Assembly (NCBI GenBank): GCA_963676835.2
Contig: CAXXFF010000002.1
Location: 1,760,001-1,824,000, forward strand
Direction of reading: 5' to 3'
Source of the DNA: Marispirochaeta sp.
Lineage (GTDB): Bacteria; Spirochaetota; Spirochaetia; JC444; Marispirochaetaceae
DNA length: 64,000 bases
Shown: one piece after another, positions 59,420 through 63,448 of the stretch
Numbering within the stretch: position 1 is the stretch's first letter
Layout of the letters: each line of letters starts with the position of its first letter
Notes under the pieces: model-generated
Told to the model about the DNA's origin: nothing
The model's database searches: none
Seen by the model: the letters and a program-made list of their open reading frames with translations, nothing else
Position numbers and translations under genes: made by a program

Positions 59420-60001
59420 CTAAACCAGCTGTTTAAGCTGTTCTTTTGCCTGTTTCAGCGCTTCGCTGTACTGGCTTTCCAGCTGGCCCAGATGGTCTTT
59501 CAGCACCTTGGTAAACTCGGGATCCTGGGAGGGTGAGAGTTTTACCGGCGATCCGGTCTGCCGGGCAATCTCCTGCTCTTTCTGTCTCAAACGCGGGGCA
59601 AACTGCTGTTCAAGACTGGAAACAAGCTGCTCCTGATTGGCCAGATACTGTCCAAAAAACTGATTAATCTGTTCGAACATCATGGATACCTGCTTCGTAT
59701 CTCCCGTCAGAATAGAAAAGGCCTCTTCCAGCAGGGCTGTTTTTTCGGAAAACTCTTTTGTCTGGGGCAGGCTGAGGTTCGCCGAAAGGGTTGAAAGCAG
59801 CCCGTCCTTAAGCCACTGCAGCTCTTCTTTGTCGGCAGTTTTAAGCTGTTTTTTCAGCTCCCCTGCATCAATATCTCCGGCGAGAAATTTCCCGGCCAGC
59901 CGTTTTCCTGCATCGGCTTTTTCCCTGGCGGCAATGCTCTTTTTATCTACTTCAATGTCCTTTGTTCGCTCAAGGGCAATCTCAAGGGCGGATTTGATCA
60001 T
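59420..60001 (-). CDS. Conserved-looking helical hypothetical protein
   Basis: Start MIKSALEIALERT with GGAG RBS; helical, charged composition. Confidence 0.7.
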   Translation of the reverse strand: MIKSALEIALERTKDIEVDKKSIAAREKADAGKRLAGKFLAGDIDAGELKKQLKTADKEELQWLKDGLLSTLSANLSLPQTKEFSEKTALLEEAFSILTGDTKQVSMMFEQINQFFGQYLANQEQLVSSLEQQFAPRLRQKEQEIARQTGSPVKLSPSQDPEFTKVLKDHLGQLESQYSEALKQAKEQLKQLV

Positions 60002-60061: not shown

Positions 60062-61360
60062 TCAAGTCCCGGTATATTTCCGGATGGCATCGGCAATCTG
60101 TTCATAGGTTGTACGCCTTCTGGTATCATCCGCTTCCAGCAGTGTTACCCGGAAGCCGGGAAGATCGCAGCAGAAGCCGCTCAGGGGAACAACGCAGATT
60201 CCCGCTGAAGCCAGAAGATAGTAGACAAACCGTTTATCCGGAGCGACGGTATCAATCATGGAATTGATGTAGTCGCGGATCTCTTCATTCTCAATCGGCA
60301 GTGACTGGTGTGAGTTCAGAAGTCCCTTTTCGAAGACCGCAGTAATATAGAAGGCTCCTTTAGGTTTCACCACCTTTACCCCGGGTACGGCATTGAGAAT
60401 ATCCGCAGCCTCCTGAGCTCTGGCTTCATACAAGGCGTTTCTGTGCTTCAGATGTGCCTCATAGCGGGGATCGGAGAATACCGGCGGAATGGAAAGCTGG
60501 GGCAGGGTGGTTGAGCAGACTTCCAGTCTCTTTGCATCCAGCAGGCTGGTAATGTAACGGGCAAACTCCGGATCCTGCTTCTGGTTGTAGACCTCTATCC
60601 AGCCGCAGCGGCCGCCGGGCCAGGGATATTCCTTGGAAATACTCCGGAGAGCCATGCCGGGAACTCCGTCTATAACGTCACTTAAAAATGTACTGTCATC
60701 GGGGTTGTAGACGATACTGGCGTAGGTTTCGTCGCAGATGACAAAGAGATCGTACTTTTTTGCGATATCCACCATGGCGGTGAGCACTTCCCGGGGGTAT
60801 ACTGCGCCGGTGGGGTTGTCCGGGTTAATGAGCAGAATTCCCGCGATGGAGGGGTTGTAGCGGACCTTGTTTTCAATATCCGCCAGATCGGGCATCCAGT
60901 TATTATCCGGATCCAGCCGGTAGGTAAGATGTTCGTAACCCGAATGGGATGCCTCAGCGGACGAAAGGGTTGAGTATGCCGGTGACGGCCCGATTACCCG
61001 GGCTTCCCTTTTAAGATATTCAAAAATCCGGGCCACCGCATCTCCCAGGCCGTTGAAGAAGAAGATGTCGTCCTTGTCTATTCCGGCTCCGCCCCGGGCT
61101 GTAACACGCTCTGCCAGAAACTCCCGTGTTTGCGGTGCTCCCTGGGTATCGGTGTAGCAGTAGGAGGCATCCGTTGAGGCGAGACCTGTTACGGTTTCCT
61201 TTATCCAGTCCGGAACAGATTCGCCTTTCTGTACAGGATCCCCGATATTCTCATAAATTACCGGCAATCCTGCTGCTTCCACTTTGTGGGCAACCTTTAC
61301 AATTTCCCTGATCTCGTAGCGCAGCTCTCCGGCGCCGTCCCATACAATTGGTCTTCTCAT
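60062..61360 (-). CDS. Class I/II PLP aminotransferase, AlaA-like (probable alanine transaminase)
   Basis: YEIR..ENIGDP, INPDNPTGAVY, DETY, SISK...GGRCGW; start MRRPIVW after GGAGG. Confidence 0.8.
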   Translation of the reverse strand: MRRPIVWDGAGELRYEIREIVKVAHKVEAAGLPVIYENIGDPVQKGESVPDWIKETVTGLASTDASYCYTDTQGAPQTREFLAERVTARGGAGIDKDDIFFFNGLGDAVARIFEYLKREARVIGPSPAYSTLSSAEASHSGYEHLTYRLDPDNNWMPDLADIENKVRYNPSIAGILLINPDNPTGAVYPREVLTAMVDIAKKYDLFVICDETYASIVYNPDDSTFLSDVIDGVPGMALRSISKEYPWPGGRCGWIEVYNQKQDPEFARYITSLLDAKRLEVCSTTLPQLSIPPVFSDPRYEAHLKHRNALYEARAQEAADILNAVPGVKVVKPKGAFYITAVFEKGLLNSHQSLPIENEEIRDYINSMIDTVAPDKRFVYYLLASAGICVVPLSGFCCDLPGFRVTLLEADDTRRRTTYEQIADAIRKYTGT

Positions 61361-61408: not shown

Positions 61409-61445
61409 AAAAAAACCGCGGGTTCCGTTTCCGGACATCCGCGGT
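61409..61445 (-). terminator. Attenuator terminator (segments 3:4)
   Basis: ACCGCGG..TCCG-GAAA-CGGA..CCGCGG followed by T7 on the minus strand, 48 nt upstream of the aminotransferase start. Confidence 0.85.
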
Positions 61446-61487
61446 GATGTATTCTGTTGTAGTGGAATACCTGTTATCCGCGGTGGC

Positions 61488-61553
61488 CTAAAAGGCGGCT
61501 GCCGCGGCGGCTGCTGAGATGCAGACGCTGTTTAACAGTGGTGTTCCAATCAT
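61488..61553 (-). CDS. Poly-Ala leader peptide MIGTPLLNSVCISAAAAAAAF
   Basis: 21 codons with seven consecutive Ala codons (GCA GCC GCC GCG GCA GCC GCC) just upstream of alternative hairpins. Confidence 0.78.
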   Translation of the reverse strand: MIGTPLLNSVCISAAAAAAAF

Positions 61554-61560
61554 GGAATCT

Positions 61561-61589
61561 ATAGTCGCATAGTCACAACCGCAGGTCAA
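61561..61589 (-). promoter_or_regulatory. Putative promoter of the leader/aminotransferase transcript
   Basis: TTGACC-17bp-GACTAT with TG extension; leader ATG lies 7 nt downstream. Confidence 0.5.
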
Positions 61590-61620: not shown

Positions 61621-62301
61621 TCAGCCCTTTTTTCCGCAGCAGTGTTTGTACTTTTTACCGCTACCGCAGGGGCAGGGGTCATTTCTGCCTGTGCTCTGAA
61701 CCTGTTGGCTCTGCCTTTGCTCTTTCTGGAGATACAGAAGAAAATAGTTTCTCAAGGCCATGATATTTTCGGGCATTTCTGCTGCAATTCGGGAGAAGGT
61801 TTCCGCCAGTTCCGGGCTGTCCTGGTTATTCGTAAAGACCTTGGGCCGGGCACAAAATGCTATTGGGCTCATGAGATTGATAAAGTCGTCATCAAAACCG
61901 GCGGCTTCCACTCCGGTACAGCGGAGGCCTTTAATGAAACCTTCGCACCATTCTCCAAGCTTCCCGATATCCTCGTTTGAAAGGGAGGTCTCTTCATCTG
62001 CAGGGACTGGAAAGGGAAATTCGTATGCGTCCTCCTTGCCTTCAAAAGAAGCAACAACCGCATTATAAGCAAGTACAGAAGTATCCAGAAATGTCTGTGC
62101 CTGCTCGCGGCTGGCAAACTCCGGCTGGTCGTTTTTCATGTTGAAAAATACCGGCATCCAGATGGCCGGAGCCGAGGGTCGGGGAGAGAGGGACACTGCC
62201 GCCAGAACTCCGTGTATTCCTGCCTGACTGAGCGGCTTCGGACAGATCTCTTCAAGGGTGGTATGAATAGTGTTCAGCATGCGGACGAGATTTTTCTGCA
62301 T
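61621..62301 (-). CDS. UPF0149/YecA-like protein with C-terminal SEC-C motif
   Basis: IHGVLAAV..SP, WCEGFIKG, GRNDPCPCGSGKKYKHCCG. Confidence 0.85.
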   Translation of the reverse strand: MQKNLVRMLNTIHTTLEEICPKPLSQAGIHGVLAAVSLSPRPSAPAIWMPVFFNMKNDQPEFASREQAQTFLDTSVLAYNAVVASFEGKEDAYEFPFPVPADEETSLSNEDIGKLGEWCEGFIKGLRCTGVEAAGFDDDFINLMSPIAFCARPKVFTNNQDSPELAETFSRIAAEMPENIMALRNYFLLYLQKEQRQSQQVQSTGRNDPCPCGSGKKYKHCCGKKG

Positions 62302-62320
62302 GGGTATCTGTTGCCTCCAA

Positions 62321-63448
62321 TTATCGGGGGGGTGAATTCTTCTGTTCAAACAGGGTGGAGAAGAATCTGAAATTTTCCTCATTCCGCAGATTGGAACCCA
62401 TTACTATGCTGTGGGCTACTGCGGGAATATCATCCGGAACGGTTCCGGTTTCCAGATAATACTCCAGAATACGCACGGCATAATAGCCCTGGAGCATGGG
62501 GTTCTGGTTGATGGCCGCCGTCAGCGCATGGCTTTTGAGGTAGCGTTCAGTGTTGGGCGTAATGCCGTGGACAATGATATTATGCCTGCCTTCAAGTCCG
62601 TGGCGCAGGATTACCTCGGCGAGGGTATCCTGAACCTCTGCAATGCTGTAGATGCCGGTAAAATCGGCCTGGGGGTCAAGTATGACCTGCTCGATTTCAT
62701 CCTTCAGGTTATCATCGTGCCGCCGTTTCCGGAAGCTTACCACCTGATGATCAACTCCGGGAAAATGGATAGACAGATAGTGAACAAACTGCAGCAGCCG
62801 CTCTTCGTTTACATGAGCGCCGGCAAGCACATGTTCTGAATTCACCGGGTTATGAATAATCAGTATGTTTCCCTTTTTACTCCCCTGTGCTCCGGCTGTT
62901 TTACCCAGAAATTCAGCAGCCAGACGGCCCCCTTCACCATAGTCGGGGCTTACGGTACAAAGCCGTCCTGTCTCCGGGGCATCTACACTGATGGTTATGT
63001 GGGGAATATTATTAGCTGTCAGAAAGCGGAATATCCGGGACATATCATATTCCGGGTTATTAACAATTCCCGCGGCTTCCATCCCCCCGTCCAGTGCTTC
63101 CTGAAGGAGCTGAAGATATGCTGCGGTATCCCTGGGGGGAACCGGCTGGTAACGGGCGGAATATCCGAGAAATGAAATCTGCTGGCGGGCAAGATCGATT
63201 CCCCGGGCTACCCGGTCCCAGAAATAATCCGGTGTACAGGAGGAAAATATAACTATGGAACGACTATTTTTGCGGCTCAGTCCCCGTGCCCCGCGATGAA
63301 CAAAATAACCGCAGGATGCGGCATGATCAATAATCCTGCGTCGGGTTGTTTCTGACACCTGCGGGGACCGTGCAAGGGCACGCTGAACGGTTTTGAGTGA
63401 GATTCCCAGCTCCCGGGCCAGTGTTTTCTGGGTCATACGTTTTTCCAT
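62321..63448 (-). CDS. LacI-family transcriptional regulator
   Basis: TQKTLARELGISLKTVQRAL...VSETTR HTH; hinge ARGL; periplasmic-binding-like domain. Confidence 0.87.
   Translation of the reverse strand: MEKRMTQKTLARELGISLKTVQRALARSPQVSETTRRRIIDHAASCGYFVHRGARGLSRKNSRSIVIFSSCTPDYFWDRVARGIDLARQQISFLGYSARYQPVPPRDTAAYLQLLQEALDGGMEAAGIVNNPEYDMSRIFRFLTANNIPHITISVDAPETGRLCTVSPDYGEGGRLAAEFLGKTAGAQGSKKGNILIIHNPVNSEHVLAGAHVNEERLLQFVHYLSIHFPGVDHQVVSFRKRRHDDNLKDEIEQVILDPQADFTGIYSIAEVQDTLAEVILRHGLEGRHNIIVHGITPNTERYLKSHALTAAINQNPMLQGYYAVRILEYYLETGTVPDDIPAVAHSIVMGSNLRNEENFRFFSTLFEQKNSPPR

Follow-up and report, generated by a model that had tools for sequence, protein, structure and literature searches.

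The locus described here lies in a 64,000-nucleotide (nt) stretch of Marispirochaeta sp. DNA (contig CAXXFF010000002.1, positions 1,760,001 to 1,824,000), which was analysed as a whole and is referred to below as the window. On its minus strand, a gene for a class I pyridoxal phosphate-dependent aminotransferase resembling AlaA is preceded by a short leader, in which a promoter-like site, a small open reading frame (ORF) with a run of alanine (Ala) codons and a series of inverted repeats ending in an intrinsic terminator follow one another; a gene for a UPF0149 protein lies upstream (Table 1). This leader is a candidate for an alanine-responsive transcription attenuator.

Table 1. Features of the leader, of its neighbouring genes and of a second leader found elsewhere in the genome; positions are those of the window unless a contig is named.
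Feature	Position	Strand	Basis
-35-like hexamer TTGACC	61584..61589	-	read from sequence
Extended -10-like element (GACTAT at 61566-61561, preceded by TG at 61569-61568)	61561..61569	-	read from sequence
Leader ORF, 21 codons and TAG	61488..61553	-	ATG at 61553, TAG at 61490-61488
Run of seven Ala codons (ORF codons 14-20), candidate regulatory codons	61494..61514	-	codon reading
Segment 1, CCGCGG inside the Ala run; partner segment 2	61502..61507	-	
Segment 2, CCGCGG; partner segment 1 or segment 3	61478..61483	-	
Small hairpin GTATTC/GAATAC between CCGCGG copies 2 and 3, apex of the 2:3 antiterminator	61449..61470	-	computed fold
Terminator hairpin (segment 3 at 61444-61439, GAAA loop, segment 4 at 61421-61416)	61416..61444	-	computed fold
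T7 tract of the intrinsic terminator	61409..61415	-	read from sequence
Class I pyridoxal phosphate-dependent aminotransferase, AlaA-like, 432 amino acids; putative regulated gene	60062..61360	-	profile and structure matches
Terminator-like hairpin just past the aminotransferase stop codon	60051..60072	-	consensus scan
UPF0149 (YecA-like) protein with a C-terminal SEC-C metal-binding motif; upstream gene	61621..62382	-	profile matches
Phe-rich leader before pheS (L171), outside the window	G000:C2:423400-424800		pheS: TIGR00468, 295.5 bits, cut-off 237.45

The elements on which the initial annotation of this DNA was built are all present on the minus strand. The promoter-like hexamers TTGACC and GACTAT are separated by 17 nt, the leader ORF carries seven Ala codons of mixed type (three different GCN codons are used), four copies of the self-complementary hexamer CCGCGG follow one another, and the last two of these copies form the stem of a hairpin with a GAAA loop and a T7 tract. 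The ATG of the leader ORF lies 7 nt past the -10-like hexamer and is without a Shine-Dalgarno sequence, and the leader mRNA is presumably leaderless. A longer version of the ORF, extended in frame to 64 codons (61682-61488), was rejected, as it overlaps the upstream gene and as that gene varies in relatives. CCGCGG occurs 20 times in the whole window, which is at chance level (18.35 +/- 4.4 in shuffles); four of the 20 copies are packed into 92 nt of the leader, for which the density over the whole window would predict about 0.03.

The 156-nt leader folds with an energy of -56.4 kcal/mol, compared with -38.2 +/- 3.6 kcal/mol for 200 dinucleotide shuffles, none of which is as good (z = -5.04). 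Its minimum-energy fold contains the 3:4 terminator and the 1:2 hairpin, with GTATTC/GAATAC paired as a small hairpin between them. The 1:2 pairing proposed in the initial annotation is thus found, with an inner part that is GCC/GGC and not GCCT/AGGC as had been stated. The proposed antiterminator, in which segments 2 and 3 enclose GTATTC/GAATAC, was borne out as well: with the ribosome on the middle Ala codon, the 2:3 hairpin reaches -18.3 kcal/mol against -9.4 kcal/mol in dinucleotide shuffles, and 0 of 200 shuffles are as low.

For the position of the ribosome relative to these segments, the leading edge was taken to lie 13 nt from the first base of the A-site codon, an assumption from ribosome footprints. 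In silico, segment 2 then stays uncovered with the ribosome at any of the seven Ala codons, and the edge of a ribosome on the TAG coincides exactly with the final base of that segment, so that the geometry fits the earlier proposal that a stall on Ala codons would mask segment 1 and a ribosome at the stop codon segment 2. Among four-segment spirochaete leaders, a stop-codon ribosome reaches into segment 2 in 25 of 25 cases and covers it completely in 21. When the window transcript was cut before the 3' arm of the terminator and folded, sequestration of the terminator 5' arm amounted to 0.25 without a ribosome, to a mean of 0.81 (maximum 0.91) with the ribosome on Ala codons and to 0.32 with the ribosome on the stop codon. 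Across the 25 leaders put through the shuffle test, the observed energy was matched by no more than 10 of 200 shuffles in 20 leaders, and the observed pairing probability in 16. Five longer leaders carry one extra hairpin pair, and their folds may be read as keeping the same switch logic, a stall leading to 2:3 plus 4:5 and the absence of a stall to 3:4 plus 5:6.

The product of the gene downstream matches the Pfam family Aminotran_1_2 (E = 7.6e-38) and the NCBIfam model NF005334 (PRK06855; 668.5 bits, cut-off 443), the name of which is only "pyridoxal phosphate-dependent aminotransferase". Its best relatives of solved structure are the E. coli glutamate-pyruvate aminotransferase AlaA (4cvq, 1.1e-41), in line with the AlaA-like gene of the initial annotation, and an archaeal transaminase (1xi9, 5.3e-38). 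In view of these structure and family matches, the label AlaA-like is a fair one, and the enzyme would be expected to make alanine from pyruvate. Because a terminator-like hairpin lies just past its stop codon, the transcription unit probably comprises the leader and the aminotransferase gene alone.

Orthologues of the aminotransferase were sought by protein search in the genome of the window and in 40 relatives. Among these 41 genomes, 15 carry an orthologue at 59% identity or more, 14 of them beyond the window genome (59-88% identity). The initial annotation had named Ala-rich small ORFs and compensatory stem changes upstream of orthologues as things to look for, and the ORFs were found. Upstream DNA is intact at 13 of the relatives' loci, and in 12 of these the orthologue is preceded by a TTGAC-type -35 hexamer, a -10-like hexamer, a nearby ATG, a small ORF with an Ala run, and a hairpin with a T tract; the fourteenth locus is cut at its 5' side, and another contig (L122) carries its leader together with codons 1-81 of the gene. 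The gene upstream of the leader varies between loci, and the leader therefore goes with the aminotransferase gene. The UPF0149/SEC-C gene adjoins the leader in some relatives and not in others. Named public records from Spirochaetota outside Leptospiraceae supplied 13 further loci, of which eight carry the full element, two a short Ala run without a T tract and two no leader, and one (L091) is cut; the protein of one such record (L031) is identical to that of L003, and this locus is consequently not independent.

Within a set of 32 spirochaete leaders, a promoter-like site is located between the upstream gene and the ORF in every case (31 identified by script and one by eye). A TTGAC-type -35 hexamer stands 16-19 nt from the -10-like hexamer in 30 of them, and one further leader has TTTACA. 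The gap between the -10-like hexamer and the ATG measures 5-8 nt in 27 leaders and 10-12 nt in the other five. At least five consecutive Ala residues are encoded in 26 leaders, four in three and three in three. Where the window leader has GTATTC/GAATAC, relatives have a hairpin of different sequence. An alignment of 15 leaders with MAFFT and RNAalifold recovered the terminator only, in which four of the 11 consensus pairs are changed on both sides; the other helices were judged in each sequence separately, because their register is too variable for alignment. The Ala-run ORF, the spacing between -10 hexamer and ATG, and the terminator are kept before the orthologue, with the remainder of the peptide and of the RNA sequence diverging, and this comparison with relatives supports the view of the leader as an attenuator.

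A covariance model built from 15 leaders was run on 151 genomes sampled from the class and gave matches in 34 genomes at E <= 0.01 and in 20 at E < 1e-6. Ten of the 20 genomes with strong matches were already known from the relatives' loci. All ten new strong matches show an Ala-run ORF, the same promoter spacing and an orthologue directly downstream, which in two cases is cut (after 19 and after 81 codons). Among the weak matches (E > 1e-4), none of ten inspected loci has an Ala run, and other terminators or other leaders are found there. Three of the longer leaders already known (in genomes G023, G006 and G007) were given weak scores by the model or were missed by it. Some weak matches fall on small ORFs of other composition: three related Shine-Dalgarno-led ORFs with terminators in genomes of family f2 (L132, L134, L136), a Cys-rich ORF with a terminator (L135), and, at G000:C2:1367924-1368072 on the plus strand (E = 0.003), a Shine-Dalgarno-led, aromatic-rich ORF of 30 codons with a promoter-like site and a terminator, for which no clear downstream gene was identified.

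The Ala runs of 22 leaders comprise 116 codons, all of which are GCN (52 GCC, 28 GCA, 25 GCG and 11 GCT). Outside the run, the peptide is conserved only within close groups, and both its length and its sequence vary between clades. As every codon of the runs is GCN and the third base varies, the signal is best read as coding and not as structural alone. The genome of the window was scanned at 1941 terminator-like sites for small ATG-initiated ORFs on their upstream side, and among these the seven-Ala ORF contains the longest run of a single residue. The only other clean case is a Phe-rich small ORF starting 9 nt past a TATAAT hexamer and followed by a strong terminator, directly before pheS. 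Further candidates from the scan (a four-Ala ORF at C2:8367 and ORFs with Trp, Cys or Met runs) were rejected as coding-like sequence or for want of a promoter. The Phe-rich leader is a putative second near-leaderless leader-peptide attenuator in this genome. In E. coli a Phe-rich leader is likewise paired with pheST. Because the Phe-rich leader precedes pheS, the spirochaete too appears to pair the leader residue with the function of the gene. In another genome of the class (G052, L138:1500-3140), a Leu-rich small ORF near a -10-like hexamer is followed by a terminator and stands before leuS (TIGR00396, 624 bits). Together, the Phe-rich leader before pheS and the Leu-rich leader before leuS suggest that leaderless leader peptides may be a general device in the class.

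On this basis, the leader very probably represents an alanine-responsive, ribosome-mediated (leader-peptide) transcription attenuator that controls a single AlaA-like aminotransferase gene. In the proposed mechanism, the element would read the supply of charged tRNA-Ala and turn the aminotransferase on when charged tRNA-Ala is short. Transcription would start at the ATG or a few nucleotides from it, and the leader would be translated as a leaderless mRNA. With ample Ala-tRNA, the ribosome would pass the seven Ala codons to the TAG and cover segment 2 with its leading edge, segment 3 would be left to pair with segment 4, and the resulting hairpin together with the T7 tract would end the transcript at about 145 nt. 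With scarce Ala-tRNA, the ribosome would stall on an Ala codon and thereby cover segment 1 and not segment 2; the latter, nucleated by the GTATTC/GAATAC hairpin, would pair with segment 3 before segment 4 is made, no terminator would form, and RNA polymerase would read into the aminotransferase gene. Should no ribosome be present, the 1:2 and 3:4 hairpins are expected to form and transcription to stop.

A leader of a different design precedes the orthologue in the order Desulfuromonadales, which belongs to a second phylum. Six loci from public records show a promoter, a 5' untranslated region of about 35 nt with a Shine-Dalgarno sequence, a longer ORF with its Ala codons in one or two clusters, and a terminator built on GGCCATGG. 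The orthologue was found in 59 of 61 sampled genomes of the order. Among the 30 best-scoring loci from these 59 genomes, 27 have an Ala-rich ORF ending at most 140 nt from a terminator of the GGCCATGG type; by the same rule, two of the remaining three have the terminator without the ORF and one has the ORF without the terminator. In many leader peptides of this group (L141-L170), the main Ala run is preceded, at a distance of a few residues, by a short Ala-Ala-Arg-Ala motif. As in spirochaetes, the Desulfuromonadales leader combines an Ala-rich small ORF, the 5' strand of an antiterminator in the 3' part of that ORF, a terminator and an orthologous enzyme. It differs from the spirochaete leader in its untranslated region with a Shine-Dalgarno sequence, in its longer peptide with more widely spread Ala codons and in its terminator sequence (GGCCATGG instead of CCGCGG), and its enzymes form a separate clade.

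The relationship between the two groups was examined in a tree of 110 orthologues computed with FastTree, which is quick and unrooted and cannot separate gains from losses. Leaders are concentrated in a Spirochaetia clade (29 of 35 rows) and in a Desulfuromonadales-type clade (17 of 19), and leaderless clades lie between the two. The tree needs eight changes of the leader label, at least six of which are forced by well-supported branches. One label (L070) was rejected as a false positive of the loose detector, which had picked the end of a coding region, and another (L093) is a weak case. L093, from a 1.76-Mb contig in a record labelled Pedobacter sp., has an aminotransferase that nests in the Desulfuromonadales-type clade and shows the promoter, the Shine-Dalgarno-led small ORF and the terminator of the Desulfuromonadales type; the record may be mislabelled or the gene transferred. 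As the tree separates the two clades and as their leaders are built differently, the leaders of Spirochaetia and Desulfuromonadales can be read as having had two origins.

A number of observations weigh against the interpretation of the spirochaete leader as an alanine attenuator. The thirteenth intact locus among the relatives (L006, in genome G004), which belongs to a species of the same genus as the window, lacks a leader, the aminotransferase gene lying directly against the SEC-C gene. A weak covariance-model match in the same genome (L131) falls on a 465-nt contig without an Ala ORF. Among the named public records, a leader was not found at L073 and L076, none of the 11 Leptospiraceae loci has an Ala-run ORF, and the Ala-run ORF is absent from the loci of Desulfobacterales, Planctomycetota, Nitrospirota and other sampled groups. 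L033 and L034 have only a short Ala run and no T tract. At these two loci (L033:984-1174 and L034:941-1131) the promoter, a small ORF with only three to four Ala codons and the hairpins are kept, and the gene begins 136-179 nt further on; their leaders may be a decayed element or an element with a different mechanism.

Further points of this kind concern the signals of the window leader itself. A generic consensus scan for promoters and terminators listed neither the promoter nor the terminator of the leader, because the stem of the terminator contains an interruption and the -10 hexamer, a weak one, agrees with TATAAT in just 3 of its 6 positions. As segment 1 lies inside the Ala run, part of this GC-rich run could be retained for pairing. 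Second among the NCBIfam models for the aminotransferase comes NF006230, an alanine aminotransferase model, with a score of 162.6 bits that falls short of its cut-off of 534; both the reaction of the enzyme and its direction are inferred. In equilibrium folds of the full-length leader with a masked ribosome, the terminator has P >= 0.9 at every ribosome position, and it is the most probable structure at each ribosome position in most other leaders too. The switch would therefore work only with kinetic folding, which is also assumed for classical attenuators, and the equilibrium folds were replaced by the folds of the cut transcript and the shuffle test given above. In several relatives the terminator 5' arm is sequestered at 0.8-0.99 without any ribosome; since the antiterminator forms there without a ribosome, the 1:2 element is not general. 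When all RNA 5' of the ribosome was masked, sequestration over the Ala run exceeded the stop-codon value by at least 0.15 in 22 of 25 leaders, a result in part trivial, since an advancing ribosome can only enlarge the mask.

Three other explanations of the leader were considered. The small ORF might be a general translation-stress sensor, in which any slowing of the ribosome gives read-through and alanine is not specifically sensed. Built as it is, the leader would react to a stall anywhere upstream of segment 2, and the upstream ORF (uORF) of mycobacterial whiB7 senses many amino acids and ribosome-targeting drugs (PMC10274678). Such a sensor is nevertheless unlikely, given that the compact Ala run is the only conserved coding feature and is placed exactly where a stall would free segment 2, that the regulated gene encodes an AlaA-like enzyme, and that the Phe-rich leader before pheS in the same genome represents a residue-specific pairing of leader and gene. 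It is highly improbable that the leader acts as a riboswitch, a T-box-like element or a protein-mediated device, responding to a ligand, a tRNA or a protein, and that the Ala-run frame is a by-product of GC-rich stems. The frame, the position of the ATG after the -10 hexamer and that of the stop codon relative to segment 2 are conserved while third codon bases vary, and the second lineage keeps an Ala-rich ORF with entirely different stems; these facts have to be set against the location of segment 1 within the Ala run, the strong structure of the leader and the consideration that alternative hairpins by themselves are no proof of ribosome involvement. A search of Rfam also argues against a switch of this type: between positions 60000 and 64000 it returned at E <= 10 only a chance-level small RNA match (20.5 bits against a gathering score of 55), and at six related loci no leader family at E <= 1.

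The leader could also be explained without any regulation, the ORF encoding a small functional Ala-rich peptide or being unexpressed and the hairpin with its T7 tract merely terminating the upstream UPF0149/SEC-C gene. Small hydrophobic peptides are common, and the terminator lies about 205 nt downstream of the stop codon of that gene. This explanation is barely credible, however, in the face of a leader that travels with the aminotransferase when the upstream gene differs, that is gone together with its terminator in L006, where the aminotransferase abuts the SEC-C gene, and that in each of the 32 cases has a promoter-like site of its own separating the ORF from the upstream gene; as for a functional peptide, its length and its sequence outside the Ala run are not conserved. 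Ribosome-mediated attenuation, with the Ala codons as the sensing element, remains the preferred explanation of the leader.

Alanine is usually treated as never limiting. It is somewhat probable, as a wider reading, that dedicated leader-peptide attenuators monitor alanine directly through the charging of tRNA-Ala, that they arose at least twice (leaderless in Spirochaetia, led by a Shine-Dalgarno sequence in Desulfuromonadales) on the same orthologous enzyme, and that the PRK06855-type enzyme is the committed alanine-synthesising transaminase in these organisms. If the attenuator reading is true, alanine would join the amino acids read by classical ribosome-mediated attenuation, and a leaderless form of leader-peptide attenuation would be seen at work in spirochaetes. 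Through their regulation, the leaders would furthermore point to the function of a widespread aminotransferase family for which curated models have only a generic name, and two differently built leaders on one orthologue would be a natural case of convergent regulatory evolution.

The classical leader-peptide attenuators of enterobacteria are trpL, hisL, leuL, thrL, pheL and ilvL, together with pheM before pheST. In general design, the window leader shares with them a short ORF in which codons for a single amino acid are clustered, segments that could pair as 1:2, 2:3 and 3:4, an intrinsic terminator, and, putatively, a regulated gene in the metabolism of the amino acid that is sensed. It differs from them in that alanine would be sensed, in that the target is a single aminotransferase gene, and, for leaders of the window type, in that there is no Shine-Dalgarno sequence, the ATG lies 5-8 nt past the -10 hexamer and no Rfam leader family is matched. 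A trpL carrying alanine codons, reportedly an engineered leader, appears in a screening paper (PMC5039519). The initial annotation had placed alanine outside the classical leader-peptide attenuators, and this was upheld insofar as a full-text literature search, with most subscription journals outside its coverage, turned up neither a paper that describes an alanine leader peptide ahead of an aminotransferase nor one on an attenuator acting directly in cis on an alanine aminotransferase. It did not hold in full, as the uORF of mycobacterial whiB7 is alanine-enriched and is described as an "Ala leader", in which stalling leads to antitermination at a Rho-independent terminator and WhiB7 then raises the AspC alanine aminotransferase (PMC10274678). 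Because this case is published, the idea of sensing alanine is less unprecedented than it seemed at first.

By analogy, the whiB7 uORF is the nearest published case and a close conceptual precedent. It resembles the window leader in its enrichment in alanine, in antitermination by stalling and in a final output of more alanine aminotransferase, yet it controls a transcription factor that then activates aspC, whereas the window leader would act in cis on the aminotransferase gene, and the gene downstream of the window leader is accordingly the aminotransferase and not whiB7. The whiB7 uORF is also described as longer and diverse in sequence, and as sensing many amino acids and antibiotics, in contrast to the compact Ala run found here in other phyla (PMC10274678). 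Leaderless leader peptides have been described in Deinococcus deserti, where eight of the 14 leader-peptide genes relate to Tyr, Thr, Trp, Met, Asp, Leu, Cys and DAHP synthase, and none of these eight to alanine (PMC4007540). For mycobacteria, polycysteine leaderless short ORFs by which cysteine is sensed have been reported (10.1101/834739). The leaders of D. deserti and mycobacteria are like the presumed window transcript in having the AUG at or next to the 5' end and in attenuation by one amino acid, while the mycobacterial ORFs sense cysteine and the window leader would sense alanine. The mechanism is a textbook one; it is the amino acid putatively sensed that is new.

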